A stretch of 60,929 nt of DNA, filler included. It is 8 parts of 8 records of this genome, joined end to end, with 100 filler letters (N's around TTAATTAATTAA, not from the genome) between each part and the next. Parts side by side here need not be neighbours in the genome. Positions count along the whole stretch, not along the records: positions 23,392 to 31,342 come from SRR31156797_34887; 7 more parts are not named here. One strand, 5' to 3'. Position 1 is the stretch's first letter, and the number at the start of each line of letters is the position of its first letter. The position numbers and the translations under genes are program-made. Positions 11,028 through 55,293 of this stretch are shown here, piece by piece. The notes below the pieces were generated by a model. That model did no database searches. It was not told the DNA's origin and was given only the letters and a program-made list of their open reading frames with translations.

Positions 11028-11320
11028 TCAAACGGATGCGATCTTCCGTCTGCGGATTGCAGCATACCCTATCCCTGTCAGGAGCAGCGTTAAGCCGATC
11101 AGGCCCCACTCGTTTAATGTGGGAATCGGGGGTGGTGTATAGGTGAGTTTTGCCACAAAGACATCATCAAAACCGGCGTTGGTTGCCTGGTACGGGTTTT
11201 GGGTGGGAAAATCGCTGGACCAGGTACGTCCTGCGACATATGCGCATCCGGATGCGTCTACTGCTATGCCGCCATCTGCGGAATCGACACCGCTTCCCCC
11301 CAGATAGGTGGAATAGGTAA
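11028..11320 (-). CDS. C-terminal fragment of an SBBP beta-propeller-repeat surface protein with IPTL-CTERM sorting signal (absent from ORF track)
   Basis: Manual translation: TYSTYLGGSGVDSADGGIAVDASGCAYVAGRTWSSDFPTQNPYQATNAGFDDVFVAKLTYTPPPIPTLNEWGLIGLTLLLTGIGYAAIRRRKIASV*. 5' end truncated by contig edge. Confidence 0.85.
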
Positions 11321-11420
11321 NNNNNNNNNNNNNNNNNNNNNNNNNNNNNNNNNNNNNNNNNNNNTTAATTAATTAANNNNNNNNNNNNNNNNNNNNNNNN
11401 NNNNNNNNNNNNNNNNNNNN
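11321..11420. other. Artificial contig linker (N-run with TTAATTAATTAA)
   Basis: 100-bp N spacer with six-frame stop 12-mer. Confidence 0.98.
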
Positions 11421-12655
11421 GCGGCCATGGCCTTGGCAATGGCAATGGCTTCCATGAATCCCAGCAGTGAGATAATCACGGCAAAGGGAAGCAGCTGCAA
11501 AAAGGAGGACAGGCTGATCTCCGGCAGACTCAGGCTGGGCAGGCCCTTGGGAATGCTGCCCACCACAGCCCCGCCCCCTGACATGACAATGGCGGCGGTA
11601 TCCAAAGGTTTGTTGCCGATTTTAATTCGGTATACCCGGTCATCTGCCCTGACTGTTTTGGAAGTCTCGCTCCCCTCTTTCAAAAACACAAGGGTCTCAC
11701 CGTTTTTGGCCGCAGAAAATTTATAATCCCGCAATTCGGTCCGGATCAGACTGGCCTCATGTTTCAGTGAATTAATCCGGGCGGTAAGTTCATTCACCTG
11801 GTAATCAAGGGAGAGCACCTCCGTCCGGGGGGCATGTTCAGACCGGGCCGATTCCAGGCCGGAGGTGGCCAGGGTTCGTTCATCGGCCAGACGTGAAATC
11901 TTGTCCAGGGTTATATTAAAGGACTGGACCTGGCCCTGGATCTCCCTGGACTGAATCCGGTCCGGAGTAACTTTGACATTATGCTCAAACCCCGTGGCCC
12001 AGGAAATCAGGGTGGCGATGACCACGGCCACCAGCACATAGGGAATCTTGGGGTTCAGCCGCTTGAGCCCGGCCATCACGGCAATGGAAGCCGCGCCCAT
12101 GGCCAGGGTGGGCCAATGGGTATAGTCAACGGCCGCCTCTATCACCCGGATAATGGTTTCATAATGGTGGGGGGCCTTGTCCACATAGACCCCGAACATC
12201 TTGGACAACTGGGAAGAGGCAATGATGATGGCTGCGGCATTGGTGAAGCCGTTGACCACCGGATGGGACAGAAAATTAACAATAAGGCCCAGGCGGAGCA
12301 CCCCCAGCAGGAACTGAAACATGCCCACGGTCAGGGCCAGCATGATGGAATAGGCAATAAAGGCCTCGCTCCCGGCTGAGGCCAGAGGTTCCAGGCAGGC
12401 GGCGGTCATCAGCGAGACAACGGCCACCGGCCCTGTTGCCAGCTGGCGGCTGGATCCGAAGAGACTGGCCACCATGGGGGGCAAAAAGGCCGCATAAAGG
12501 CCGTAATAGGCCGGAAGCCCGGCCAGCTGGGCATAGGCCATGGACTGGGGAATCAACACCAGGGCCACGGTCAGGCCGGCGAGAAAATCAATTCTGAACT
12601 TTGCCGAAGAATAATCTTTAAACCAGTGGAGAAACGGCAGGAATTTATAAAGCAT
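11421..12655 (-). CDS. SulP (SLC26) anion permease, 3'-truncated
   Basis: DFLAGLTVALVLIPQSMAYAQLAGLP..YGLY, FGSSRQLATGP and PVVNGF motifs; ATG at 12655. Confidence 0.9.
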
Positions 12656-12671
12656 CTGTCGTACCTTTCGA

Positions 12672-13253
12672 TTATTGAGTTTGAAGTATGCGTTTACATG
12701 CCAATACCATCTCGTTGAACAGGGCATTGGCATTATAAAGGTTATAGGTTTTAAACCGGACCACCCCGTCAACCATGGAAAAAATGATCAAGGCGGTTTT
12801 CCGGGCCGGGAGAAGGTCAATGGAGCCGTCTTTCTGACCCGATTCAATGGCCTCCTCATAAATATTGACCAGGCAGTCGTAAATGGCCTCCAGATGGCTA
12901 CGGCATTCGGGAAAGACCTCGGCCATCTGATAGGGGTAATACCGGTGAAGCAGAAGAAACTGATTTTCCATCTTTCCGGCCAGGTAAAGATGAAAGGAGA
13001 CAGCCTGTTCCATCATGTCCATTCCGGACTCAAACTGCTGTTTACCCATATAGTCCTCAAATTCATTGAGGATCATTTCACGGGTCTGGCCGAGCACGGC
13101 CAAAAACAATTTTTTCTTATTCTTAAAATGATAGAACACCGTACCCTCGGCCACACCGATCATTTTTGCCAGATCGGCCGTAGAGGTTTCCTTGAACCCG
13201 TTCTGGGAAAACAGCACCGTGGCTGCCTGTAATATGGTCTCTTTTTTATTCAT
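12672..13253 (-). CDS. TetR/AcrR family transcriptional regulator
   Basis: ILQAATVLFSQNGFKETSTADLAKMIGVAEGTVFYHFKNK HTH; ATG 13253 (alternative GTG 13259). Confidence 0.9.
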   Translation of the reverse strand: MNKKETILQAATVLFSQNGFKETSTADLAKMIGVAEGTVFYHFKNKKKLFLAVLGQTREMILNEFEDYMGKQQFESGMDMMEQAVSFHLYLAGKMENQFLLLHRYYPYQMAEVFPECRSHLEAIYDCLVNIYEEAIESGQKDGSIDLLPARKTALIIFSMVDGVVRFKTYNLYNANALFNEMVLACKRILQTQ

Positions 13254-13264
13254 ATTCACCTTTC

Positions 13265-13326
13265 TGAGTATCCACTCAAATAAACTGAGTAATTACTCAG
13301 TATCAAGATTAAAGATCAAAAGTCAA
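13265..13326 (-). promoter_or_regulatory. Putative tetR promoter (TTGACT-N16-GATACT) overlapped by two TGAGT-N4-ACTCA operators
   Basis: Perfect 18-bp palindrome ACTGAGTAATTACTCAGT (13284-13301), second core TGAGTATCCACTCA (13265-13278), and -35-like TTGACT at 13326-13321. Confidence 0.7.
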
Positions 13327-13669
13327 CCCTTTTTATGGGGGGCCCTCATTTTTGGCCAGCCATCAATGCCGGAATTGTCCATGATTTGATTTTTTAATCT
13401 TATTCCCCTGTTTTTTTGACAAAAAGAATGGTTTCTGGTAAAAAAATACCACGATTTTATCCGTAAGTTGAATCGGATAAAATCGTGGCACACCTTGAAT
13501 TTCCTGCCGGACAGCGGTCGGACTCAGGGGTTGAACACTATAAAGTTTAAGGAGTGGCACACACTTCAGACGATAATTGACATTATGGAATAAGCCGGTT
13601 TCATATCCCGACAATGAAACTGGTTTATTTGTTTAAAGCAGAAAAACGGGTTTAAAAAGGATCTCCCCC

Positions 13670-15025
13670 ATGAACAGCTCTCAGATAAAAGGATTCCAAA
13701 ATTCCCATATCCGGGCGGCCCTTACCGTCCTTGTCACATTCTTCCTCATTTCCTCAGGTCCGTCTCCCGCATGGGGTGCTGCCGGTAAAACCATCCTGCG
13801 CATCCACGGATCAAACACCATTGGCGCAAAACTGATGCCGGACCTGGCAAAACGATTCCTGAAAAAAAAGGGGTATCAGTTCATCACCCAAGACGAAGGT
13901 GCCAGGAAGCATGAATATTTTATTGTGGGTATAAAAGGGGATGATATCCATCGAATTGAAATCAATGCCCATGGCTCATCAACCGGTTTCAAAAGCCTTG
14001 AGGACGGGGGCTGTGATATTGCAATGGCCTCCCGAAGGATCAAAAATAAAGAGATTCAATCCCTTGAACCTCTCGGCGACATGACCGCCATTGACAACGA
14101 ACACATCCTTGCCATTGACGGTATTGCCGTCATCGTCAACCCGTCCAATAACCGATCCGAACTGGATAAAATCCAATTGAAAAAAATTTTCTCAGGAAAA
14201 ATCACCAATTGGAAACAGGTTGGCGGAAAAGATACGCCCATCAAGGTATACGCACGGAACGACCGGTCCGGGACCTATGACACCTTTAAAACAATGGTGT
14301 TGAATAAAACCCGGCTGATTGGCACGGCCAAACGGTATGCGTCCAACGAGGACCTGTCTTATGATGTATTCAAAGATCCCGGCGCCATCGGATTTGTGAG
14401 CATGCCCGGAGTTCTCAATTCAAAGGCCCTGACCATAAAAGAAGAAGCCGGCAGTGCCGGGGTCCGGGCCAATCATATAACGGTTGCCTGTGAAGATTAC
14501 CCCCTGTCCCGCAGGCTCTACCTTTATACGGCATCCATGGAAAACAGATGGGTAAAAGAATTCATCGGGTTTGCCCTGTCCAACGAAGGGCAGAACCGGG
14601 TCTCCATGCTGGGATTTTCAAAGCTTTCCATGGACATGGACGGATTTGAGGTCAATACATCCCGGTTCAGGGACAAGGAACAAAACCTAAGATACAAAAA
14701 CGAAACCCTGGGAGGGCGCCGGGTTAATTTTAATTTCCGCTTTACCCCCTCAGGCGGCCTGGAAAACAGGTCCAAAAAAGATCTGGACAGGCTCATCCAA
14801 TATATCCAGCATCCTGACCAGAAATACTATGAACTGGTTCTCATCGGTATCAACGGCTGCAAAAAAACCAATGGGGTGGGAAATCTTATCCTCAAGCGGA
14901 TCGGGACGGACCGCTTCTATGTGCCGCCCAGGATTATCTGCCTTGATGATGTGTTCACTCCGGGAGGAACCCCCTGGAAACCCGTCATTGAAGTCTGGCT
15001 CCGCACAGTGGATGACGGTGCCTGA
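13670..15025 (+). CDS. PstS-like phosphate-binding periplasmic protein with degenerate OmpA-like C-terminal region
   Basis: Signal peptide; LRIHGSNTIG, GSSTGF, DIAMASR, SGTYDTF and YPLSRRLYLY motifs. Confidence 0.8.
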   Translation: MNSSQIKGFQNSHIRAALTVLVTFFLISSGPSPAWGAAGKTILRIHGSNTIGAKLMPDLAKRFLKKKGYQFITQDEGARKHEYFIVGIKGDDIHRIEINAHGSSTGFKSLEDGGCDIAMASRRIKNKEIQSLEPLGDMTAIDNEHILAIDGIAVIVNPSNNRSELDKIQLKKIFSGKITNWKQVGGKDTPIKVYARNDRSGTYDTFKTMVLNKTRLIGTAKRYASNEDLSYDVFKDPGAIGFVSMPGVLNSKALTIKEEAGSAGVRANHITVACEDYPLSRRLYLYTASMENRWVKEFIGFALSNEGQNRVSMLGFSKLSMDMDGFEVNTSRFRDKEQNLRYKNETLGGRRVNFNFRFTPSGGLENRSKKDLDRLIQYIQHPDQKYYELVLIGINGCKKTNGVGNLILKRIGTDRFYVPPRIICLDDVFTPGGTPWKPVIEVWLRTVDDGA

Positions 15026-15069
15026 TTCCGGTCGCAGCACAGCCCCTTCAACGACAGGGAAAAGCCGTT

Positions 15070-17316
15070 TCAGTTCCCGGCCGCCATCAATCTGTTCACT
15101 GAATTAAAGACTTCAAACTGGGTACAGGGCTTGGCCAGATGGTCCACATGGGAATCTTTTTGTTTGAGATCCCCTATGGAGGCGATAAATTCAAGATTGC
15201 CTGAAATGAAAAGTATGGGAATACAAGGATTGGATATTCGGGTATGGGAATATACATCCATGCCGGATATCCCCCCGGGAAGGACATAGTCCAGACAGAT
15301 CATGTCATATGAAGATTCATCGATCAGGGCCATGGCGGTCCGCCCGTTTTCCGCAATATCGACCCGGTGCCGGCCCGGGCTCTTTGAAAGCAGATCGGAA
15401 TATATCTTGGAAATGGCCGGTTCATCTTCCACCAGAAGAATATGTTTCCCTTGGCAGATCTCTTCCCGGTGAAGGTCTTGGGCATCCTGCACAGCGGCCC
15501 CATGATTTATCATGGGCAAACAGATGGTTGTCCGGGTCCCCCGGCCTTCCTCGGACCGGACAGAGACAGTCCCTTTGTGCTGTTCCAGATACTTTTTCAC
15601 ATTGGCCATTCCATAGCCGGTCCCTTTAATTCCCTTTGCATAGACCCCGCGCCGGTCACGGCTCCCCTTCAGGGTAAATGAGGGATCAAATATGAGGTCC
15701 ATATATTTTCCGGGAATGCCGCAACCGTTGTCTTGAATTTCCACACTGACGGCATCCTCCCGGTACCGGGTCCGGATGATGATTTCAGGAAACTCAACCC
15801 GGCTGAGGGCATGAATCGAATTCTGCAGGATATTGACAAGGGCGTTTTCCACCATCCCGGGATCGGCTATGATATCCCTTGGTGGCAGGGCATATTCCCT
15901 GATGAGGCGAATATCCTCAAGATCCCGTTCCAACAGGCTGAGAACAAGATCTATTTTCTCGCCTACACAAAAACGGGCCTTCTTAAACTCCTGGTCTTTG
16001 GCAAAGGCGACCAGGTTTTTTGTCATTGTCCGTCCAAGAACGCTCTGCTCAAATATCTGGCCAAAGGCTTTTTTCGCATCAGGTTCAGCACTTTCAAGGC
16101 CGCTCAACTCGGAGATCCCCATGATAATGGTCAGGATATTATTAAAATCATGGGCCATTTTACCGGCAACCTGTCCGACCAGGGCAAGCTGCCGGGCTTC
16201 GGCAGCCTCACTGAGAGCCGCCATTTTTTCAGCCTGGGCCTTTTTGACTTCGGAAATATCCTCGGACACGCAGACAATATGCTCAAGGGCCCCGGAGGGC
16301 CTGAAAACGGCATCAAAGGCACCCCGGTAATGGCGAAGGTTTCCGGATTTATCCCTGAGTCTGTAATCGATGAAGGTTCTGGATATAATTCCCTGTTCAA
16401 GTTTTTTAAATTCCGGTTTCAGGGCCCGGACATCTTCCTCGGCCATCAGGGTAAATGAGGATTTCCCCACAAGCTCCCCGGGGCTGTACCCCAGCTGTCC
16501 GTGGGAATGGCCGGCATAGGTATAACGGGCGTGGTTATCGTGGATGGAGACCAGGGCGCTGGTATGCCCTGTGATCAGGTTAAAAAGGGTTTCGCTCTCC
16601 TTGAGCCGGTCGATGAGCCGGTCACGGTCCTCAACGGTTTTCTCATATTCGGCAATAAGATCCTTGGTTAAAAACCTCAGGCCCATGCGGTAGAGCCGGT
16701 TGAAAAAGCTGGGCACCTTCCAGTGAAACTCTATTTCACAATGGCTGTGGCCTTCCAGAACGCACTTCACTTCCCTGGCCTTGATCAGCCTGGCCCCGGC
16801 CAGCCTGGCAACCCCCATGTATATACCGATATTCCAATTGCAGACATCCTTGGTCACCCGGAACCCGGGTTTATAATGCAGCTCCAACCGGGCAAAATCC
16901 TTTCCAAGCCCGGAAATTTTCACCGTTTTTGTCCGGTTGAATTTGGCATTGACCCTGGCGACTTTTTTGGCAATGCCCGTGGGCCCGACAAGCCTGCTGA
17001 AAAACAGATCCCGCCTTGAAAGGGATTCAAGAACAACGGCCTTACCCGCCGTCCGTTCCGGATGGGGGCCGGGAACCACTGTCTTGATCATCGACAGCAA
17101 AGAAAGGGAAAACCCATTGGAAATCCAATAGGCCTCGTCGGTCAGATGGGCAATGGTAACCGGCTCAAGAACGGCGGGATCATTCTTATTGGCGATCAGG
17201 TAGGGTTTATCCCCCATGGCCCCCTGAACCATTTTCTCCAAAGCGGTTTTTCCGAAACGGTTTTCAATATACCCGAAAAGCCCTTTGAAATTCAAACAAC
17301 AGATATCTTTATCCAT
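15070..17316 (-). CDS. Hybrid histidine kinase (V4R-like N-terminus, PAS, HisKA, HATPase, receiver)
   Basis: MAHDFNNIL, NILQNS, DNGCGI, GTGYGM and receiver LLVEDE..LDYVLP. Start at MDKDICC; the ORF-track extension to 17808 overlaps the permease. Confidence 0.85.
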   Translation of the reverse strand: MDKDICCLNFKGLFGYIENRFGKTALEKMVQGAMGDKPYLIANKNDPAVLEPVTIAHLTDEAYWISNGFSLSLLSMIKTVVPGPHPERTAGKAVVLESLSRRDLFFSRLVGPTGIAKKVARVNAKFNRTKTVKISGLGKDFARLELHYKPGFRVTKDVCNWNIGIYMGVARLAGARLIKAREVKCVLEGHSHCEIEFHWKVPSFFNRLYRMGLRFLTKDLIAEYEKTVEDRDRLIDRLKESETLFNLITGHTSALVSIHDNHARYTYAGHSHGQLGYSPGELVGKSSFTLMAEEDVRALKPEFKKLEQGIISRTFIDYRLRDKSGNLRHYRGAFDAVFRPSGALEHIVCVSEDISEVKKAQAEKMAALSEAAEARQLALVGQVAGKMAHDFNNILTIIMGISELSGLESAEPDAKKAFGQIFEQSVLGRTMTKNLVAFAKDQEFKKARFCVGEKIDLVLSLLERDLEDIRLIREYALPPRDIIADPGMVENALVNILQNSIHALSRVEFPEIIIRTRYREDAVSVEIQDNGCGIPGKYMDLIFDPSFTLKGSRDRRGVYAKGIKGTGYGMANVKKYLEQHKGTVSVRSEEGRGTRTTICLPMINHGAAVQDAQDLHREEICQGKHILLVEDEPAISKIYSDLLSKSPGRHRVDIAENGRTAMALIDESSYDMICLDYVLPGGISGMDVYSHTRISNPCIPILFISGNLEFIASIGDLKQKDSHVDHLAKPCTQFEVFNSVNRLMAAGN

Positions 17317-18179: not shown

Positions 18180-18279
18180 NNNNNNNNNNNNNNNNNNNNN
18201 NNNNNNNNNNNNNNNNNNNNNNNTTAATTAATTAANNNNNNNNNNNNNNNNNNNNNNNNNNNNNNNNNNNNNNNNNNNN
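18180..18279. other. Artificial contig linker
   Basis: N-run with TTAATTAATTAA. Confidence 0.98.
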
Positions 18280-23291: not shown

Positions 23292-23391
23292 NNNNNNNNN
23301 NNNNNNNNNNNNNNNNNNNNNNNNNNNNNNNNNNNTTAATTAATTAANNNNNNNNNNNNNNNNNNNNNNNNNNNNNNNNNNNNNNNNNNNN
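23292..23391. other. Artificial contig linker
   Basis: N-run with TTAATTAATTAA. Confidence 0.98.
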
Positions 23392-24368
23392 AGGGCTATC
23401 CCGGCCAGGTCGAGCATAAGGGATATAATTCCAGCTGTAAAACCGGGCAGGTTAAACCTGAATTGGGTACTGATCGCGACGACAAAGGGCAGTAGAAAGC
23501 CTGCAAACAGGGCGTAGTGGCTCCAACCGGCCGCCGGACGGGTAAAAACCTTTCGTTGACCGAAAACATGCTTCAGAAGGCCTGAGAATCGCTCTCCCAA
23601 CCGGTCCAGACGAAACTCGGGGCTGCCTTGCCGCCAGAAAACCAGCTTCCGGCCCCATCCCCAGCAAAATACAGCCAGGGCGCCGCATAGCGTGACAAGG
23701 TATAAAATGTCTCCGGATAAGCCGCCCGAAAGGCCTGTCCCATGAAAACTTCCGAGAACAGCCCGCCCGTCCATTTCGGAATCGTGGCATTTATAACAGG
23801 CTGCATCGGTAATCGGTTCTTTTTCATTGTGCGCAGCCCGTCCCTGGTGGCAGTCAAGGCAGTTGGCTCGGGAATAGTCTTTTGCCAGGTCGGCTTTACC
23901 GTGTCCTTTGAGTCGAAAGGATAAAAGCGAGGCCCGGATGCCGCCGCCGGCTTTTTCAGGGTGGCAGGCCGAGCAAGTCGCAGCCTGGTTCCGGTCGGAC
24001 AGGGTCGAGGCGTCATCGGTTCGCGGCAGGATGAGATGTTTGCCGTGGCACTGGTGACACTGTGGCGCCTGTTCGGCCATATTCCCATGGGCGTTTCCTG
24101 ATTCGTGGCATTCAAGACAATTTACCGGAGTAACGGTTTTGCTTTTTTGGTGGGCAGGGTCTTCACCCGAGGGGTGGCAGTCCAGGCAGGACAGATCGCT
24201 TCCATGGACGGAAGCTTTGAAATCCGCGCCCTTGATATGCCGAGAGCTTTGAGCGCTGCCTATTTCGTGACATTTAAGACATTCAGACCCGGCCTCGGAT
24301 CCCATGGCTGGCTGAGAAATGCTGAGAATGAGAAACAGGGCTGCAATAATGACAAGCGGACGCATCAT
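23392..24368 (-). CDS. Seven-heme cytochrome c fused to a membrane domain resembling the N-terminus of ETF:quinone oxidoreductase (EMO/FadF/DUF224-type), 3'-truncated
   Basis: Signal peptide; CLKCH, CLDCH, CLECH, CHQCH, CSACH, CLDCH, CYKCH; then a TM helix and RLDRLGER..HVFGQRKV...GWSHYALFAGF. ATGA overlap with the etfA stop. Confidence 0.8.
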
Positions 24369-25384
24369 GACGATTCCTCTACACCGGCTGATTCCGCCTG
24401 TTCTGATTTGCCGCGGCAAAGTTTCAGCAGTTCCTGAAGCACTTCCGCAGCGTCCCCAACAAGGCCCAGGTCGGCGTAAGAAAATATGAGGGCCCTTGGA
24501 TCCGTGTTAATGGCCGCAACGGTCCGGCTGTCGGTCATGCCCACAGTGAATTCGTTGGCCCCGGATATACCGCAAGCCAAGAGCAGCCTTGGCGCCACGC
24601 TGACTCCGGTCTGTCCTATCTGGCGTTCGAAAGGCAAAAGCCCGGCGTCTATGACCGGCCTGGCCGCGCCCAGGGAAGCTTCCAGGAATTCGGCCGCATC
24701 CCTGATCAGGGGCATGCCGTCGGGAATAAGCCCGCGTCCCATGGCCACTATCCTGTCGGCCTGGTCGAGAGGCAAAGTGCGAAAGTCTCCCGGAATGCGC
24801 TTCACTGTCCGCAAGCGGTCCGAGTAAGGGGATGGGACAGGGTTAATAATTAATACATCGGCGGTCTTTTCGCCTCTGGATTCCCATCGCCCCAGAACTT
24901 GAGGCTCCCAGGTCAGGATGTTGATAATTGTTGGATCAAGAATCACTTCCAGGTCGAGGCGGCCGTCATGCAACGGCTGCAGAGCAATGAAATCGCCGTT
25001 TTGGTTTCGATCCAGACCCAAACATTTTGACACCAGACCTGCTTCAAGCAAAACCGCCAGCAGGGGAGCGGATATCGCGGTGGAGATGGAAAGACAGAAG
25101 ACCCAGGCCTGACCGGCTTCAAGGACAAGGGAAGCCGCGGTGCGGGCCGCGGTATCGGGAGCGTATTCAACATCATCCAAAATGCATTGATACACCCGGG
25201 AGACGCCGTATGGACCAAGAATATCGCCGGCGTTTTCAAGTTGGCCAAAGACAAGGGCTTCAATCGAAAGTAATGGATCAAAATTTTTAGCCCAGGCAGC
25301 GGCCTGTCCGGCAAGGGCCAGGGACGACGGCTCCAATTCGCCGTTTATCGATTCCAGAATAACGAGTACACCGCTTTTATTCAT
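24365..25384 (-). CDS. etfA: Electron transfer flavoprotein alpha subunit (divergent)
   Basis: ADRIVAMGRG, GAARP, RQIGQTG, GISGA and AINTDP..IF..ADLGLVGD motifs; ATGA overlap with the upstream OYE. Confidence 0.88.
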   Translation of the reverse strand: MNKSGVLVILESINGELEPSSLALAGQAAAWAKNFDPLLSIEALVFGQLENAGDILGPYGVSRVYQCILDDVEYAPDTAARTAASLVLEAGQAWVFCLSISTAISAPLLAVLLEAGLVSKCLGLDRNQNGDFIALQPLHDGRLDLEVILDPTIINILTWEPQVLGRWESRGEKTADVLIINPVPSPYSDRLRTVKRIPGDFRTLPLDQADRIVAMGRGLIPDGMPLIRDAAEFLEASLGAARPVIDAGLLPFERQIGQTGVSVAPRLLLACGISGANEFTVGMTDSRTVAAINTDPRALIFSYADLGLVGDAAEVLQELLKLCRGKSEQAESAGVEESS

Positions 25385-27345
25385 ATTTTGCGCCCTATTC
25401 GGTTGCCTTCGGCAACAGCCATGTCAATTCTTCGCGGCGCTGCTGCATCGCCGATGATATACAGTTCATTCACTTTTCCTTTTAGCTTGAGATAAAGGCT
25501 GTCGTCGGCTTCCGCGCCGCAAGCCAATACGATCCGGTCGTATCCTTCGAGTGTGACCATTTCGCCCGAGTAGACCTGCACGGCTTGGGCGGAAAGCCCG
25601 TTGATCATGAAAACGGCTGTATCATTTATAAAAGAGACCCCTTTTTCGGCCAGTCGCTTGCGTGAAAGCGAAAAATCCTGCAAGGGGCCGAGCCCCGAGC
25701 CTACAAAAAGAGACGGCGTGACCATGGTGACTTCATTTCCTTTATCAGCCAGGAACTCGGCCGTGGAAACAGCCTGGTGGTGACCGTCGTTGTCAACCAG
25801 CAGCACGCGGGAATTTGTAATTTCATATTCGCCAAGGAGAACCTGCCATGAAGATATAACTTCGGGCGGGCCGTAATCGCCTCCAAAAGGGGCGTTTTTC
25901 GGGCGGGCGCCCGCGGCGATTACAACTGCATCCGCTTGCTCTGCCAAAATTGTTTCCGGGTCAGCGTGGGCATTCAAACGCAGGTCTATGTTATTCAGCT
26001 TATCAACCTGGCTGATCAGCCACCTGGTAACGCCTTCGATTTCCTGGCGTCCGGGTGCGCGGGCGGCGATCATATTCTGCCCGCCGACATAACCGTTTTT
26101 TTCCATAAGCACCACTTCATGCCCACGCAGGGCCAGAATCCGTGAAGCTTCCAATCCGGCCGGACCGGCGCCGACAACCACTACTTTTTTGGGCTGGTCC
26201 GCTGGTTTGACCGTTCCCTCCCCCAATTCCACTTCCCGTCCGACAGCGGGATTCTGGATGCAGCCAAGTGAGTAACCCAATCCCATGCGGCCGATACAAC
26301 CCTGGTTGCAGGCAATGCAGTAACGGATATCCCCGGCACGGCCTTCCAATGATTTTTTTGGCAGTTCCGGATCGCAGATCAAGGCCCTAACCATTCCAAT
26401 CATGTCGGCATGGCCGTCGGCAATAATGTTTTCGGCCAGATGCGGGTCGTTTATTCGGTTGGTGGCAAAGACCGGCAGACTGACCTGCTCGCGAACGGCG
26501 GCGGCCAGGGGAACCGTGTACGCCAGAGGCGTGTGCATTGAGCCTTCAACTAAAAAGAGATTGAAGAAAGTGCCGATGCTCAGGTCGAGAAAATCAATGA
26601 GGCCCGAATCTTCAAGTGACCTGGCTATGCCGGGCGTATCAGAGATGGACAGGCCGCCCATGGGGTGCATTTCATCCGCATTGAGCCTGACGCCTACCGT
26701 AAAATCAGGGCCCACGGCGTTGCGAACCGCCTTGAGTACATTCAGACAGAACCTAAGCCGACCATCAAGGTCGCCTCCGTATTCATCATCGCGAAAATTG
26801 GTTAAGGGAGAAAGAAACTGTCGTATCAGGGAGCTGTGACCGATCTGGATTTCAATGCCGTCAAAACCTCCATCACGAACATATAGGGCCGACTGTGCGA
26901 AATAATCCACGCATTCCTGGATTTCCACATGTTCCATGGCCTTGGGATACTCTCTGAACAGTGGATCGGGCACGGATGACGGTCCCCAGACCGGCCGGTC
27001 GGTATGACTGGAATCGCCCTGCAGACCATTGTGGTTGAGCTGGGCGAATATCTTTGTGTCAGTCTCATGGACGACGTTGGTCAGTTTGCGATATCCCTTG
27101 ACCACATCAGGTTTAAAGGCGAAAACCAGCTTTTCGTAAGGGTGATCGGAGGGGTGAACCGACAATTCTTCTGTAATAATGAGTCCGGCGCCGCCTTTGG
27201 CCCTTTCCCGGTAATACATTATATGCCCGTCGCTGATTCTGTTTTCCCGGCCAAGGTTGGTCATGTGGGCGGAAAAACTGATCCGGTTGGGCACGACGGT
27301 GCGGCCGATTTGCAGAGGTGAAAACAGATATTGAAAGTCGGCCAT
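25381..27345 (-). CDS. Mycofactocin-system FadH/OYE family oxidoreductase (OYE2-like)
   Basis: TIM barrel (YYRERAKGGAGLIITE, RQFLSPLTN), CIACNQGC..C [4Fe-4S] motif, VGAGPAG dinucleotide fold; located in the mft operon. Confidence 0.85.
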   Translation of the reverse strand: MADFQYLFSPLQIGRTVVPNRISFSAHMTNLGRENRISDGHIMYYRERAKGGAGLIITEELSVHPSDHPYEKLVFAFKPDVVKGYRKLTNVVHETDTKIFAQLNHNGLQGDSSHTDRPVWGPSSVPDPLFREYPKAMEHVEIQECVDYFAQSALYVRDGGFDGIEIQIGHSSLIRQFLSPLTNFRDDEYGGDLDGRLRFCLNVLKAVRNAVGPDFTVGVRLNADEMHPMGGLSISDTPGIARSLEDSGLIDFLDLSIGTFFNLFLVEGSMHTPLAYTVPLAAAVREQVSLPVFATNRINDPHLAENIIADGHADMIGMVRALICDPELPKKSLEGRAGDIRYCIACNQGCIGRMGLGYSLGCIQNPAVGREVELGEGTVKPADQPKKVVVVGAGPAGLEASRILALRGHEVVLMEKNGYVGGQNMIAARAPGRQEIEGVTRWLISQVDKLNNIDLRLNAHADPETILAEQADAVVIAAGARPKNAPFGGDYGPPEVISSWQVLLGEYEITNSRVLLVDNDGHHQAVSTAEFLADKGNEVTMVTPSLFVGSGLGPLQDFSLSRKRLAEKGVSFINDTAVFMINGLSAQAVQVYSGEMVTLEGYDRIVLACGAEADDSLYLKLKGKVNELYIIGDAAAPRRIDMAVAEGNRIGRKI

Positions 27346-27349
27346 GATA

Positions 27350-29302
27350 TCAGACCTCTAATCCGGCAAGGGCGCCTTCTCTGACAGCCGAATCAATCCT
27401 GCGCGGGGCCACGCAGTCGCCGGCGCGCAGAACCTTTAGACCCATTGCCTTAAGCTCATTGTATAATGAATCATTTGGGATCTGGCCCATGACCGTGACC
27501 ACGGTGTCATAACCTGGCCAATTTTTTACGGCGCCGGTGTGTTTATCGATAGTTTCCACTACTGTTCCATTAATGGCCGTGACCAGCTGGTCGCAGTGGA
27601 TGGCAACGCCTCTGGAGTCAAGTTGTCCGCGAATGAAATTCAAATCTCCCTGTGGGGCCAGGTCAAGTCCGATAAAAAGTTCGCTGGACATCATTTCAAC
27701 CCGGCTTCCACGATCGGCGATGAAGACCGCTGTCAGGGCGGCCTTGTAGTGTCCGTCCTCGTCGATCAGCAGCACGTTTTTACCGACAGGATATTTTTCT
27801 TCAAGCACATCCCTTACGGTCAATACTTCAGGCGGACCGTATTTTCCGGGAACCGGTGCGGGATTAGGGATAGATCCCAAGGCCAGGATCACGGCGTCAG
27901 GCTCCAGGGCCATAATCGATGTAGCATCCATTTTTCTCCCATAGAATACAGGGACTCCGATTTTTTCCAGACGTGCGGCCATGCGGCCGACCATTACCCC
28001 AATTTCGGACCGTCCTGGTTGGATGCCCGCCAGGCGCGCCTGACCGCCGGGTTCGTCCTGCTCTTCAAAGATTAGAACGTTATGCCCACTCGATGCGGCA
28101 ATGTATGCGGCTTCAAGCCCGGCCGGCCCGGCGCCGACCACGACAATCTTTTTCTGCTTATCGGCTTTTTTACCTTTTGGCTTTTTGGATTCCCGGCCGG
28201 TCCGGGGATTTTGAATACACCCAATTGTTCGATCCCGATTGGTTCGCCCAATACAGGACTGGTTATCGTACACGCAGGCGGTTATTTCCGATTCACGGCC
28301 TTCTTGAATTTTTTTCGGCAGATCGGGATCGCAGATAAGCGGCCGCCGCCATGAGATCATATCGGCCTGCTTCGAGTCTAAAGCTTCTTCGGCCATTTCC
28401 GGCGTTGTAATCCTATTGCCCACGGCCACGGGCAGTGAAACTTTTTCCTTGAGCGATGCGGCCAGATCCAGGTTGAATCCCCGGGAATGGTGCATAGAAG
28501 CCCTGACCAGATGCAGATTATAGTAAGTGCCCACGGTTGTGCAGAAGAAGTCGACCAGTCCGGATTCCTGCAACCGTATGGCCGCTTGAAGAGCTTCTTC
28601 CCGGTCCAGGGCGCCGTAAAACATTTCATCAAGGCAGAAAACCGGCCCGATAGGGAAATCCGGCCCCACTGCACCCCGCACCGCCTTGATAATTTCGAGG
28701 GGGAAGCGGAGTCTGCCTTCCAGGTCGCCTCCGTAATCGTCGTCTCGCGTATTAGTGAGAGGAGAAAGAAACTGACGCAGAAGACTATCCGAGCCTATGC
28801 CGATTTCAATGCCGTCAAAACCGGCCTCTTTTAAGGCTTCGGCGCCTTGGGCCAGTGCTTCCGTAACTTCCCGTATTTCTTCCGAGCCCATTTTTCGGCA
28901 TACTTCACCGTAGACAATGTCAGAAACCGGGACCGGCCCCCAGGTCGGCAGGCGACTGATAGCTCCATGGCTCTGAAATCCGCGATGATTAACCTGGGCA
29001 AAGACGGCGGCGCCGGCGGATTTCAGGGTTTCAGCCAGGCGTTTCAAGTCGTCGACGCCGGCCGGCGTATAGGCTTCTATCATTTTTTCATACGGGCGAT
29101 CACCTGGATGATAGCTGATTTCGCCGACAACCACGGCGCCGCAGCCGCCATTGGCGCGGGCCTGATAATAGGCGGTCAGGGTTTCGCTCACCCGGCCGTT
29201 ATGGGCAAGGTTTGTTCTGTGCGGCCGGAAAATGATCCGGTTTTTGAGCCGAACGTTCCCCAGTTGGACGGGAGAGAGCAGATTTTTGTAGGAACCGGTC
29301 AT
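27350..29302 (-). CDS. Mycofactocin-system FadH/OYE family oxidoreductase (OYE1-like)
   Basis: Paralog of the downstream gene: RQFLSPLTN, CVYDNQSC..C, VGAGPAG; starts 1 nt after the mftC stop. Confidence 0.82.
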   Translation of the reverse strand: MTGSYKNLLSPVQLGNVRLKNRIIFRPHRTNLAHNGRVSETLTAYYQARANGGCGAVVVGEISYHPGDRPYEKMIEAYTPAGVDDLKRLAETLKSAGAAVFAQVNHRGFQSHGAISRLPTWGPVPVSDIVYGEVCRKMGSEEIREVTEALAQGAEALKEAGFDGIEIGIGSDSLLRQFLSPLTNTRDDDYGGDLEGRLRFPLEIIKAVRGAVGPDFPIGPVFCLDEMFYGALDREEALQAAIRLQESGLVDFFCTTVGTYYNLHLVRASMHHSRGFNLDLAASLKEKVSLPVAVGNRITTPEMAEEALDSKQADMISWRRPLICDPDLPKKIQEGRESEITACVYDNQSCIGRTNRDRTIGCIQNPRTGRESKKPKGKKADKQKKIVVVGAGPAGLEAAYIAASSGHNVLIFEEQDEPGGQARLAGIQPGRSEIGVMVGRMAARLEKIGVPVFYGRKMDATSIMALEPDAVILALGSIPNPAPVPGKYGPPEVLTVRDVLEEKYPVGKNVLLIDEDGHYKAALTAVFIADRGSRVEMMSSELFIGLDLAPQGDLNFIRGQLDSRGVAIHCDQLVTAINGTVVETIDKHTGAVKNWPGYDTVVTVMGQIPNDSLYNELKAMGLKVLRAGDCVAPRRIDSAVREGALAGLEV

Positions 29303-29303
29303 G

Positions 29304-30320
29304 TCAGGCCGCGACCAGCCCCAGGCAGCGCATGCATTCCGGGTCAGGCTGGTTTAATTCATTATAAGTATGATAGGCCACTGCCGGACAACCGCCCCTG
29401 CAGGATTCGAAACGGTAGCAGGATTCACAGGAACCGACTTCCATGTTCCGAAACTCGTCGAAGATTTTAGACTGTCGCCAGATATCGCTTAACGACTGCT
29501 GTCTGACGTCGCCGGCCTTGAACTCCGGTTCCTGGAGAAAAGCACATGGATAGACTTCGCCTGTCGGCGACAGACAACAGGTCATTTTGGCGGCGCCGCA
29601 CATATCCAGGCCCTGGCGGCGCCGTTTTTCCGATGTCAGGGAAAAAAATGAATCCCCGGTGCGGATCATATCGTGTTCGCTAAGCCAGCCGGCGAAAGAT
29701 TCTAGCTGTTCCTTATCAGGCTTGAGTTGATCGTTGTTGGATTTGCCCCGGCCGGACGGGCGGAAGCGGGACACCCGAAGGTCCGCGGAATAATTCGCGG
29801 CCAGGGATCGCAAATCATCTAGCTGGGGATAGCTTTGTTTGGTCAGAACAGTGTTGAAGCTGAAGCGGACGCCTTGTCCCGCCAGGTTTTCCGCGGCCTG
29901 AAGAACCTTGAGGTAAGTCCCCTGCCCTCGTATTTCGTCGTTGACTGCGGCCGTGGCCCCATCCAGACTGATCTGCAAAAACAGCATGGACATTTTTGAA
30001 AGGGTTGCGGCCAGATCGGCGTCAATGAGAGTGCCGTTTGTGCTCACGCAGGCGACTATGCCCTTTTCATGAGCGTATTTCAACAGGTCGAGGAAATCCG
30101 GCCTCATGAACGGTTCGCCGCCGCCGATGTTTATTTGAAAGACGCGCAACCGGGCCAGTTCATCCAATACTTTAATGCATTCTTCCGTAGTCAGCTCATC
30201 TGTTGCAGCCGGCCCCGAGGCGGACAGGCAGTGACGGCAGAACAGGTTGCACTTAAAGGTGATTTCCCAGGTCAGATTCACAGGCGCCCGTAAACCGCTT
30301 CGTGCGAGGTTAGAACTCAA
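29304..30320 (-). CDS. mftC: Mycofactocin radical SAM maturase MftC (SPASM)
   Basis: APVNLTWEITFKCNLFCRHCLS, QINIGGGEP, QISLDGAT, RFRPSGRG and SPASM cysteines CGAA..CC..VYPC..CESC..CRGGC..PDPEC; TTG start with AAGGAG RBS. Confidence 0.9.
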   Translation of the reverse strand: MSSNLARSGLRAPVNLTWEITFKCNLFCRHCLSASGPAATDELTTEECIKVLDELARLRVFQINIGGGEPFMRPDFLDLLKYAHEKGIVACVSTNGTLIDADLAATLSKMSMLFLQISLDGATAAVNDEIRGQGTYLKVLQAAENLAGQGVRFSFNTVLTKQSYPQLDDLRSLAANYSADLRVSRFRPSGRGKSNNDQLKPDKEQLESFAGWLSEHDMIRTGDSFFSLTSEKRRRQGLDMCGAAKMTCCLSPTGEVYPCAFLQEPEFKAGDVRQQSLSDIWRQSKIFDEFRNMEVGSCESCYRFESCRGGCPAVAYHTYNELNQPDPECMRCLGLVAA

Positions 30321-30573
30321 TTATCACTCCTTTGTGTTTCAGGTTTTCCAGGGCTTTTTTAAGTCCGGCTGCTTTTTTAAAGGATTCCGGGCCTTGCTCC
30401 ATTTTCTTGTCGACCCATTCCCTCAGGGTAATATCGCTAGTAAAAAACTCTTCGCCCAACAACTTTTTGGAAGCGAGGAAGAAAAGCCTGGGGCCGTGCA
30501 TGGAATAGAACAGCAGCCCGAAATCTTCTTCACGGACCTGGGCGCCAGGCGCCAGTCTGTATTTGGTATCCAT
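30310..30573 (-). CDS. mftB: Mycofactocin RRE peptide chaperone MftB
   Basis: YRLAPGAQVREEDFGLLFY..PRLFFL and ALENLKHKGVI match the MftB/PqqD-like pattern; lies between mftA and mftC. Confidence 0.85.
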   Translation of the reverse strand: MDTKYRLAPGAQVREEDFGLLFYSMHGPRLFFLASKKLLGEEFFTSDITLREWVDKKMEQGPESFKKAAGLKKALENLKHKGVIIEF

Positions 30574-30697
30574 TATCAATCCTTAGTTCGGCGCGGCCGG
30601 AGCAGCAGCGGTTCAAGTATCGGCTTCTTTGGTCAGGCGCCAAATACTTATTTTGCATTCCATAAATAATTGGCAATACGATCCATTCCATTATTTT

Positions 30698-30769
30698 GCA
30701 GGTTGGGTTAGCAAAGCCTAACCCAACACCTTTATATTGGTGGGTTACGTTCCGCTAACCCAACCGACC
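30698..30769. repeat. Inverted pair of REP-like palindromes (REPIN-like)
   Basis: GCAGGTTGGGTTAG-CAAAGC-CTAACCCAAC (30698-30727) and an inverted copy whose minus strand reads GGTCGGTTGGGTTAGCGGAACGTAACCCACCA (30738-30769). Confidence 0.7.
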
Positions 30770-30784
30770 TAGGATGCGGCCGGA

Positions 30785-30922
30785 TCAATAAACGCCGCAG
30801 ATTCCGTCAATGGCCATTTCTTCGATTTCGATCTCCTCGATCGCAAACGCGTCTTCCTTACTTTCACTTGCAGCTTCCGGTAGTTCGACAGCATTTTCGT
30901 TCAATTTACGTTCGTTGTTCAT
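30785..30922 (-). CDS. mftA: Mycofactocin precursor peptide MftA (45 aa; missed by ORF track)
   Basis: Manual translation MNNERKLNENAVELPEAASESKEDAFAIEEIEIEEMAIDGICGVY*; GGAGG RBS upstream; C-terminal IDGxCGVY hallmark. Confidence 0.95.
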   Translation of the reverse strand: MNNERKLNENAVELPEAASESKEDAFAIEEIEIEEMAIDGICGVY

Positions 30923-30962
30923 ATGGTTCCTCCACTTGTTTTATTTAATTACAGACGCCGGC

Positions 30963-31342
30963 TTAGTCCCATTTACAGACCCAACGCCCGTTAATTTCCT
31001 TATGTTCCATGGCCTCGGCCACCTGGTTGATTTCTTCCAGGTCAAAATAACGTGTGGTCAATTTACCCAGGGGAATATCGCCCCGGACGACCATATCGGC
31101 CATGCGCGGGATATCCACTGATGTGCGGATATTGCCGTACAGGGTGCCAATCACGGATTTACCGTGATGCGTCAAAAAGTTAAGCGGCAGTTCGGTCATG
31201 GCTTCTTCCGGGCAGATGCCCACGACCACCAGCTTGCCGAAAGGCGCCAGGGCCCAGAAGGCCTGGTGAATGGCCCCGGGATTGCCGACAACCTCAAAAA
31301 TATGTTGGGCGCCCCATCCCCCGGTAAGTTCCTTCACCTTCG
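30963..31342 (-). CDS. Zn-dependent (MDR) alcohol dehydrogenase, 5'-truncated
   Basis: ELTGGWGA..FEVVG, GKLVVVG, GTLYG and LEEIN C-terminal MDR motifs; ends 40 bp before mftA. Confidence 0.8.
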
Positions 31343-31442
31343 NNNNNNNNNNNNNNNNNNNNNNNNNNNNNNNNNNNNNNNNNNNNTTAATTAATTAANN
31401 NNNNNNNNNNNNNNNNNNNNNNNNNNNNNNNNNNNNNNNNNN
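31343..31442. other. Artificial contig linker
   Basis: N-run with TTAATTAATTAA. Confidence 0.98.
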
Positions 31443-37120: not shown

Positions 37121-37220
37121 NNNNNNNNNNNNNNNNNNNNNNNNNNNNNNNNNNNNNNNNNNNNTTAATTAATTAANNNNNNNNNNNNNNNNNNNNNNNN
37201 NNNNNNNNNNNNNNNNNNNN
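37121..37220. other. Artificial contig linker
   Basis: N-run with TTAATTAATTAA. Confidence 0.98.
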
Positions 37221-45052: not shown

Positions 45053-45152
45053 NNNNNNNNNNNNNNNNNNNNNNNNNNNNNNNNNNNNNNNNNNNNTTAA
45101 TTAATTAANNNNNNNNNNNNNNNNNNNNNNNNNNNNNNNNNNNNNNNNNNNN
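45053..45152. other. Artificial contig linker
   Basis: N-run with TTAATTAATTAA. Confidence 0.98.
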
Positions 45153-55193: not shown

Positions 55194-55293
55194 NNNNNNN
55201 NNNNNNNNNNNNNNNNNNNNNNNNNNNNNNNNNNNNNTTAATTAATTAANNNNNNNNNNNNNNNNNNNNNNNNNNNNNNNNNNNNNNNNNNNN
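55194..55293. other. Artificial contig linker
   Basis: N-run with TTAATTAATTAA. Confidence 0.98.

Follow-up and report, generated by a model that had tools for sequence, protein, structure and literature searches.

A stretch of DNA of 60,929 nucleotides (the window) carries, at positions 23392-31342, a mycofactocin (mft) gene cluster in which mftA, mftB and mftC are followed by two genes for flavoproteins of the FadH/old yellow enzyme (OYE) type, by etfA, which encodes the alpha subunit of an electron-transfer flavoprotein (ETF), and by the first part of a gene for a heptaheme membrane protein. The system is of an unusual kind, frequent among anaerobic bacteria and catalogued yet uncharacterised, in which mft is combined with FadH/OYE and ETF. 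We propose that it probably forms a chain leading electrons from the mycofactocin core through the OYEs and the ETF to the membrane, in maturation of the cofactor, in its recycling, or in both. A functional tie between this module and mycofactocin is likely. As to the task, the case for an MftD-like step is evenly balanced, recycling of the reduced cofactor stands slightly lower, and the combination of both in one module is a tentative suggestion. Where a substrate, a direction of electron flow, the pairing of the two OYEs (OYEa and OYEb) or any single electron-transfer step is named below, we infer it. The genes are:

30963-31342, minus strand: Zn-dependent alcohol dehydrogenase (ADH), C-terminal 126 residues, cut by the contig end (Pfam ADH_zinc_N 50.7)
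30785-30922, minus strand: mftA precursor, 45 residues, C-terminus IDGICGVY (TIGR03969 29.8, cut-off 25)
30310-30573, minus strand: mftB chaperone, ATG at 30573, in-frame TTG at 30579 (TIGR03967 53.9, cut-off 33)
29304-30320, minus strand: mftC radical SAM/SPASM maturase, TTG start (TIGR03962 389.3, cut-off 265; Pfam Radical_SAM and SPASM)
27350-29302, minus strand: OYEa, FadH/OYE-type FMN/Fe-S flavoprotein, divergent paralogue (TIGR03997 720.3, cut-off 793.15; TIGR03996 344.9, cut-off 627.9)
25381-27345, minus strand: OYEb, mycofactocin-system FadH/OYE oxidoreductase 2 (TIGR03997 855.4, cut-off 793.15; TIGR03996 393.8, cut-off 627.9)
24365-25384, minus strand: etfA, ETF alpha subunit (Pfam ETF and ETF_alpha; NF038209 mft_etfA 123.8, cut-off 240)
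23392-24368, minus strand: N-terminal 325 residues of a fusion protein with signal peptide, heptaheme cytochrome c and the start of a NarI-like membrane domain (seven CxxCH; Pfam cytochrome c3/c7)

The cluster and its conserved neighbourhood

All eight genes were located on the minus strand, in the order Zn-ADH fragment, mftA, mftB, mftC, OYEa, OYEb, etfA and heptaheme-c/membrane protein. The co-oriented run from ADH to heme protein that a preliminary description of this DNA had reported is therefore real, and the overlaps or gaps of 1-4 nt given there from mftB onward were found at the same junctions: mftB and mftC overlap by 11 nt, gaps of 1 and 4 nt separate mftC from OYEa and OYEa from OYEb, and an ATGA overlap joins both OYEb to etfA and etfA to the heme protein gene. 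Wider gaps lie between ADH and mftA (40 nt) and between mftA and mftB (211 nt). The same stretch is contained in one 22,752-base contig of another study (run X2), from which it differs at 501 letters; because that contig spans it in one piece, the gene order is not an assembly artefact.

An MftA ending in CGVY was found together with MftB and MftC over their cut-offs, all three being features of the mycofactocin system of Haft (2011), to which MftF co-occurring with MftA and MftC also belongs. MftA also passed the NF040489 variant_MftA model (33.7, cut-off 30). Since the precursors of ETF-type clusters elsewhere keep the canonical end, IDG(I/M)CGVY, the chemistry of MftC in such clusters should be the canonical one. 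The ADH fragment matched mycothiol-FDH and TIGR03989-like families of NCBIfam. TIGR03989 represents the branch of Zn-dependent dehydrogenases that Haft tied to mycofactocin (PMC3023750), and it was the best model for all of the full-length Zn-ADHs beside eight related loci, with 302-371 bits at a cut-off of 440. Judged by these scores, the cluster-linked ADHs appear close to this nicotinoprotein family and are not certified members of it. Neither etfB nor mftF was found on the contig, which is cut, and MftD and MftE were likewise not detected on it.

Conservation of the neighbourhood was followed from two anchors. An etfA-anchored scan of a collection of species-representative genomes yielded 45 loci, with an OYE gene directly upstream of etfA in 36 and mft genes in 30; six were ordinary etfB-etfA pairs with neither OYE nor mft. 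Downstream, etfB was present in 33 and mftF in 25 of the 45 (in L001, a Desulfomonilaceae metagenome-assembled genome (MAG) locus, TIGR03965 scored 350 at a cut-off of 280). Among the 30 mft-bearing loci, the gene directly after etfA encoded a NarI/FeS/CCG protein in 28 and FixC-FixX in two, and a heptaheme protein was encoded in 21. The full order in the relatives reads [ADH]-mftA-mftB-mftC-OYEa-OYEb-etfA-[heptaheme c]-NarI/FeS/CCG-etfB-[radical SAM]-mftF-radical SAM/SPASM.

To counter the bias of an etfA anchor, a second sample was anchored on mftC, using 401 genomes spread evenly over the phylum to which L001 belongs. MftC exceeded its cut-off in 17 genomes at 19 places, 18 of which had DNA beyond mftC. 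At 14 of these 18 an OYE_2-type gene adjoined mftC, and all 12 OYE places that were long enough contained both etfA and etfB. The heptaheme and NarI/FeS/CCG proteins accompanied them at six of the 12. The other six had a single OYE and an insert of 1.7 kb between etfA and etfB, which was verified as FixC plus FixX in L049, gave a FixX-like match in L059 and was judged by spacing only in four. Bare mftABCF clusters accounted for four of the 18 places, two of them in genomes that also bear the ETF type. Thus the conservation of ETF and heme protein genes beside mft, which the preliminary description had singled out for checking, held at every long place for the ETF and at six for the heme and membrane proteins.

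The occupant of the slot between etfA and etfB varied. L001 and L003 (also from a Desulfomonilaceae MAG) encode a heptaheme fusion, and L026 and others a separate cytochrome and membrane protein. In L042, a Desulfobacula MAG locus, HmcA (16 hemes), HmcB and HmcC (11058-17107), all over NCBIfam cut-offs, lie between etfA and a gene for a TmcC/HmcE-CCG fusion, which is followed by etfB and mftF. Aneurinibacillus danicus and Actinomycetota have FixC-FixX in this position. In every case the slot contained an ETF oxidoreductase, either membrane-bound or quinone-linked, whose type differed between loci. Our strongest argument that the ETF ties the cluster to membrane electron transport is this constancy of the slot combined with the variation of the oxidoreductase. 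The backbone of the ETF-type cluster was seen in no fewer than four phyla, namely Desulfobacterota, Spirochaetota, Bacillota and Actinomycetota.

OYE, ETF and membrane proteins

OYEa and OYEb comprise about 650 residues each. They had been read at first as an OYE1/OYE2 pair, a naming that does not hold: both score best on OYE_2 (TIGR03997) and neither reaches the OYE_1 cut-off. In a FastTree phylogeny of 79 sequences, which offers local support only and contains some long branches, an OYE_1-like clade with the first OYE of Actinomycetota and Aneurinibacillus was separate from the OYE_2 clade. The latter formed a trichotomy of OYEa (25 rows, support 100), OYEb (30 rows, support 99) and a single-OYE type. 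From its position inside the OYE_2 clade, OYEa is taken to be a lineage-specific OYE_2 duplicate. Both window OYEs were sister to the proteins of L001/L003, with identities of 52% and 66-67%.

The best relatives of OYEb in PDB were 2-naphthoyl-CoA reductase (NCR; 6qkg, 293 bits) and 2,4-dienoyl-CoA reductase of E. coli (FadH; 1ps9, 261 bits), with further matches to trimethylamine dehydrogenase (TMADH, 218 bits) and histamine dehydrogenase (206 bits); all four are three-domain enzymes with FMN, [4Fe-4S] and nucleotide. PDB entry 1o94 contains TMADH together with ETF chains. In the alignments, the NAD(P)H-type GxGxxG of FadH was not present in OYEa or OYEb, whose third domain reads D-x-D/N-G-H/G-H (DNDGHH in OYEb) where FadH has GCGGIG and TMADH has NADTYF. 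This argues against the two proteins being ordinary NADPH enoate reductases, the alternative that the preliminary description had raised. OYEb keeps the CxxCxxxC-x12-C pattern of the cluster as CIACNQGC-x12-C, its GHSSLIRQF is invariant (20/20 in alignment A1), and its His170 aligned to His172 of TMADH at a place where FadH and NCR have Gly-Tyr. The cluster motif of OYEa is CxxDxxxC...C; the window copy and 22 of 23 first paralogues have Asp at the position of the second cysteine. OYEa has Ser-Asp-Ser where OYEb has His-Ser-Ser; most OYEa relatives have Glu-Ser there.

EtfA found its best solved relatives among bifurcating ETFs (5ol2, 124 bits; 7qh2, 121; FixB of 7koe, 100), ahead of canonical 1efv with 92 bits. 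The EtfB of the closest full locus matched canonical ETF beta of M. methylotrophus best (91.5 bits, against 84 for FixA). By overall similarity the ETF thus appears ambiguous between the bifurcating and the canonical type.

The heme protein of the window is cut at 23392 after about three transmembrane helices, before the Fe-S and CCG domains. A full-length protein of 836 residues (P0009) was 90% identical to it (291/325 residues) and contains seven CxxCH motifs, about six transmembrane helices with a NarI-like Pfam domain, Fer4, two CxxCxxCxxxC motifs and two CCG domains. The early guess of a protein resembling ETF:methylmenaquinone oxidoreductase (EMO) agrees with the NarI-like, Fe-S and CCG parts of P0009 and with the adjacency to etfA. 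The same fusion (856 residues) is encoded in the closest genome loci, L001 and L003. Its membrane parts resemble TmcC/HmcE and TmcB/HmcF, and it was a dedicated paralogue in all five genomes examined. A metagenome scan with P0009 returned 47 pattern matches and no relatives.

Absence of MftD and MftG and possible roles of the module

Three partner genes known from mycobacteria were missing. MftD did not exceed its cut-off in any of the 24 genomes with ETF-type or bare clusters, nor did MftE in 10 genomes of relatives or MftG in five related genomes; MAG incompleteness bears on each of these absence counts. Aneurinibacillus had a creatininase-family gene below cut-off beside its cluster. As a positive control for MftD, 401 genomes of Actinomycetota were searched, ten unpublished ones entering the denominator only. 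MftD occurred in 32, OYE_2 in 11 and mft_etfA in nine, all nine among the 11, and no genome had both MftD and OYE_2. In the nine mft_etfA loci FixC always followed etfA (9/9), and mftC lay within the fetched stretch in six. The OYE genes are what appears where MftD is missing.

M. smegmatis mutants that lack mftD form no mycofactocins at all and accumulate AHDP, and other peptidases make up in part for a missing mftE (PMC7491314; this article, like PMC11778925, PMC8805022, PMC6502838, PMC13416013 and PMC13101534, is used here from excerpts). Because mycofactocins are abolished when mftD is lost, an MftD-like oxidative deamination would have to come from elsewhere in genomes with the present type of cluster. 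MftG, in turn, is lacking in about 25% of the genomes with MftC, its replacement being left open in the excerpt of PMC11778925, where Desulfonema limicola, Geobacter pickeringii, Geotalea uraniireducens and Desulfofarcimen acetoxidans are listed as MftC-positive and MftG-negative. The OYEs and the ETF had been proposed in the preliminary description to recycle mycofactocinol. That role is retained here as one of two: with MftD, MftE and MftG missing, the module may instead, or additionally, make the redox centre.

We propose a scheme that accommodates both tasks. As in mycobacteria, the C-terminal Val-Tyr of MftA would first be decarboxylated and cross-linked by MftB and MftC. The OYE_2-family FMN/[4Fe-4S] pair, with OYEb as the catalytic protein and OYEa probably as a partner subunit, would then oxidise C3 of the pyrrolidinone core. 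On an AHDP-type precursor it would convert the amine to the keto-amide redox centre, the job of MftD; on cofactor reduced by the neighbouring nicotinoprotein-like ADH it would oxidise the hydroxyl group, the job of MftG. One enzyme system could serve for both jobs because the amine precursor and the reduced cofactor differ only in the C3 substituent; the two paralogues might also share out maturation and recycling. Electrons would pass from FMN via [4Fe-4S] to the FAD of the dedicated EtfAB, on to the Fe-S/CCG domain of the dedicated membrane oxidoreductase and its hemes b, and from there to menaquinone and/or the seven periplasmic hemes c. The midpoint potential of premycofactocin (PMFT) is -255 mV (PMC7491314), from which we reason that flow to menaquinone would be downhill. 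In its most far-reaching form, the OYE_2 pair would be a single oxygen-independent system that replaces both MftD and MftG and is wired through the ETF to a transmembrane heme conduit, a version that we regard as rather doubtful.

Several points weigh against the proposed chain. OYEa falls below the TIGR03997 cut-off (720 against 793), and EtfA, for which NF038209 mft_etfA was the best NCBIfam family, stays below the cut-off of that family (123.8 against 240). The best solved relative of OYEb, NCR with 293 bits, is a reductase and no amine dehydrogenase. TMADH-type dehydrogenases are defined by a 6-S-cysteinyl FMN (Cys30), and it is Met28 of OYEb that aligned to this flavin-linked cysteine. 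The contig stops before etfB, mftF and the Fe-S/CCG domains; we infer completeness of the window system from one protein with 90% identity and from relatives whose identity is 31-67%. A sequencing-run search found the stretch in no RNA run. The zero overlap of MftD and OYE_2 among the 401 Actinomycetota genomes is significant only if conditioned on mft-bearing genomes, an assumption under which the two sets separate completely, and the genomes in which co-occurrence was counted are phylogenetically related, not independent events. One 6.9-Mb MAG (G378) has mftABCF with neither MftD nor an OYE_2-level match (best 492 bits), so the OYE may be unneeded for the product there, unless the MAG is incomplete. 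Five loci (L009, L013, L015, L031 and L033) show OYE-etfA-NarI/FeS/CCG-etfB with no mft gene in the retrieved stretch, which makes the ETF/EMO-like unit a reusable module, not one exclusive to mycofactocin; of their single classical OYEs, the three that entered the motif table (L009, L015 and L031) all have a HGAHGYL-type motif, and two of these (L009 and L015) a GG..G-type third domain. Finally, if the step is purely biosynthetic, a respiratory module of its own is a large apparatus for it.

One alternative is that the module serves maturation only, the OYE pair being an oxygen-independent substitute for MftD, the ETF and the membrane protein disposing of two electrons, and recycling being left to something else. 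The exclusion of MftD fits this well, being perfect in the 24 genomes and in the 401 (32 with MftD, 11 with OYE_2, overlap 0), as does the finding that M. smegmatis cannot form the redox centre without mftD (PMC7491314). ETF-dependent amine dehydrogenases belong to the OYE family, and the OYE genes directly follow mftC, among the biosynthetic genes and ahead of mftF. Against it stands the cost of a private ETF and a membrane protein with seven hemes c, heme b and Fe-S for catalytic amounts of a cofactor. Moreover, MftG is missing too (0/5), so that some re-oxidising route is required, turnover is implied by the ADHs linked to the clusters, which are of the mycofactocin-associated branch, and OYEb lacks the Cys30 seen in amine dehydrogenases. 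We consider a role confined to maturation unlikely.

Less probable still is that electrons run in the opposite direction, from the periplasm or quinol, or from NADH via a FixAB-like bifurcating ETF, to OYEs that act as low-potential reductases of mycofactocin or of another hard substrate. Such a flow is suggested by the relation of OYEb to NCR (293 bits), which takes a low-potential donor (PMC6502838), by the bifurcating ETFs 5ol2, 7qh2 and FixB of 7koe, which rank ahead of 1efv among the solved relatives of EtfA, by FixCX, the partner of bifurcating FixAB, filling the same slot in other phyla, and by the bidirectionality of EMO in Syntrophus (PMC8805022). The EtfB of the closest full locus, however, best matches canonical ETF beta of M. 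methylotrophus; the adjacent dehydrogenases would yield reduced cofactor rather than use it up, and a cofactor at -255 mV requires no low-potential donor. That OYE, ETF and membrane protein form an independent catabolic module for enoate or aryl-CoA-type reduction or oxidation, with the mft genes as chance neighbours, is very improbable, despite the single classical OYE with etfA, membrane protein and etfB in the five mft-less loci and the many FadH/OYE paralogues per Desulfobacterota genome (9-10 matches each in G268 and G209, for example), because the module lies between mftC and mftF, inside the cluster, in four phyla, because non-mft OYEs are separate from the clades of OYEa, OYEb and the single-OYE type, which have motifs of their own, and because OYE_2 and mft_etfA occur together in 9 of 11 Actinomycetota genomes and never with MftD.

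If the electron-transfer chain proposed above operates, the Desulfobacterota form would be a 'mycofactocin:periplasmic cytochrome/menaquinone oxidoreductase', and nicotinoprotein alcohol oxidation could feed anaerobic respiration, syntrophic formation of H2/formate or extracellular electron transfer. In sulfate reducers and syntrophs, this oxidation would be linked to the membrane as well as to the pool of periplasmic cytochromes. Mycofactocin biology so far comes almost wholly from aerobic mycobacteria. The combination of OYE with an ETF and an ETF oxidoreductase, both dedicated, is a candidate answer for MftG-less genomes and suggests an oxygen-independent route to the cofactor. Families that had no function, namely mycofactocin FadH/OYE 1 and 2, mft_etfA and mft_etfB, gain testable roles, and two questions become experimental: how mycofactocin is re-oxidised without MftG, and how it is made without MftD or oxygen.

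Relation to known systems and additional observations

The preliminary description had held the complete wiring to be undescribed. No paper on the link was found in the literature searched, but the family catalogues already contain the ETF link (NF038209 mft_etfA and TIGR04503 mft_etfB). Full-text literature searches, whose coverage did not extend to reviews on mycofactocin occurrence and on MftD, returned no paper joining mycofactocin and ETF, and the only listed co-mention of mycofactocin with ETF, OYE or FixC-type terms was a paper on coumarin degradation. Of the six papers combining mycofactocin with anaerobes, none deals with such clusters as far as title and the beginning of the abstract tell, and neither FadH nor OYE occurs in the founding mycofactocin paper of 2011 (PMC3023750). 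The EMO/Tmc-like heptaheme membrane end, its exchange for Hmc or FixCX modules in the slot between the two etf genes, and the clean exclusion of MftD, MftE and MftG were not found described.

The closest known counterparts are the mft clusters of Actinomycetota and Bacillota (TIGR03996/TIGR03997, NF038209, TIGR04503), which have the same backbone of mftA-B-C, OYE, etfA, ETF oxidoreductase, etfB and mftF and likewise lack MftD. Their first OYE is OYE_1-like, whereas both OYEs of the window fall inside the OYE_2 clade. Their oxidoreductase is the soluble or peripheral FixC-FixX, in place of which an integral-membrane fusion of heptaheme c, NarI-type b, Fe-S and CCG parts is found here, and the window EtfA reaches only 124 on their mft_etfA family (cut-off 240). 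MftG, the mycobacterial GMC flavoprotein mycofactocinol dehydrogenase, has the same proposed role, in which reduced mycofactocin gives up its electrons to the respiratory chain (PMC11778925); it shares no homology with the present proteins, and the route here would require OYE, ETF and membrane oxidoreductase. MftD, the premycofactocin synthase, is like the OYEs an FMN enzyme of the mft cluster for which we propose a shared oxidative deamination of AHDP. Its fold is of the alpha-hydroxy-acid oxidase type, in contrast to the OYE/FadH type with [4Fe-4S], and the two are mutually exclusive in genomes.

TMADH and histamine dehydrogenase (1o94, 2tmd, 3k30) share with the window OYEs the three-domain FMN/[4Fe-4S]/ADP-type architecture and the lack of an NAD(P)H motif in the third domain, and His172 of TMADH has an equivalent in OYEb. 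The ETF partner of TMADH is known from a solved structure, that of the OYEs from genes alone. Cys30 is replaced by Met in OYEb, which is nearer to NCR and FadH (293 and 261 bits, against 218), and in OYEa Asp takes the place of the second cysteine of the TMADH-type cluster. EMO of Syntrophus aciditrophicus is a membrane-bound diheme/FeS ETF:methylmenaquinone oxidoreductase (PMC8805022, excerpt). Like EMO, the window protein is encoded beside etf and, going by its full-length homologues, would be a membrane-bound heme-b/Fe-S protein, a likeness drawn from architecture and not from the sequence of the Syntrophus protein. The window protein differs by an added N-terminal periplasmic heptaheme c domain and by the place of its gene, which is flanked by etfA and etfB and belongs to an mft cluster. 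With the Tmc/Hmc complexes of sulfate reducers it has in common multiheme c, a TmcC/HmcE-type membrane subunit and a TmcB/HmcF-type CCG Fe-S protein; here these parts are fused in one polypeptide, and the scores lie far under the cut-offs of the Tmc/Hmc models. Flavoprotein/ETF clusters of anaerobic benzene activation (PMC13416013 and PMC13101534, excerpts) were considered and set aside as unrelated, their proteins being GlcDEF-like.

The window consists of eight contigs joined by seven artificial linkers, and the mft run fills exactly one of them (7,951 bp, cut at both ends and with linkers on either side). The linkers and the spacer between mftA and mftB are:

11321-11420, 18180-18279, 23292-23391, 31343-31442, 37121-37220, 45053-45152 and 55194-55293, no strand: artificial linkers, each N44-TTAATTAATTAA-N44
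30580-30784 (core about 30694-30772), no strand: mftA-mftB spacer, palindromic multi-copy element resembling a repetitive extragenic palindromic (REP) sequence (RNA fold and contig depth)

Open reading frames called across the linkers are artefacts. The GC content is 0.54-0.56 within the mft contig and 0.33-0.60 among the surrounding contigs (0.33-0.44 in the next ones); because it spans 0.33-0.60, the contigs of the window may come from more than one organism. The neighbouring contigs carry unrelated housekeeping genes, and genomic context was taken from the mft contig only. The 'likely anaerobe' named at the outset as the source stands insofar as the relatives are Desulfobacterota MAGs, which are its whole basis; with both OYEs sister to the L001/L003 proteins, the source would be a Desulfobacterota-like anaerobe. 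The contig of run X2 extends 5.4 and 9.4 kb past the ends at 23392 and 31342, and contigs of run X1 reach about 6.4 kb past 23392 and about 5.4 kb past 31342. The missing parts of the ADH and membrane protein genes and the downstream genes thus exist in public sequence data.

The spacer element folds as RNA with -79.4 kcal/mol (z = -4.64). An attenuator was considered for this hairpin and dropped, since multi-copy depth and contig ends point to a REP-like repeat: contig depth over 30574-30839 was about 457 against 45 in run X1 (about 10-fold) and 156 against 51 in run X2 (3-fold), and many contig ends of both runs fall within this interval. The element thus looks like a REP-type repeat; a close relative in run X2 lacks 25 of its bases. 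A promoter and terminator scan was not informative, giving 8 and 15 sites against 4.3±2.4 and 10.0±3.7 in shuffles.

Further features were noted in the related loci. Minimal mftA-mftB-mftC-mftF clusters occur in L054-L057 (genomes G268, G209, G001 and G378) with a precursor ending in VDGICGIY, that is, Ile-Tyr and not Val-Tyr; G001 and G209 also contain an ETF-type cluster. One or two extra radical SAM/SPASM genes are conserved around mftF (L026, 14597-15721 and 17215-18369; L001, 16278-17447). They score far under the cut-off of MftC or of any named maturase, which suggests that the variant may include further modification of the peptide or cofactor. Just upstream of mftA, L026 encodes a SnoaL-like protein (3787-4518; Pfam SnoaL_4, 94.7 bits) of a group of 220-243 residues, with homologues at 74-89% identity in L016, L017, L019, L020, L023 and L024. 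These are Desulfatiglans-like loci, and the SnoaL-like gene is preceded by genes for a CoA-transferase, a thiolase and a hydroxyacyl-CoA dehydrogenase.

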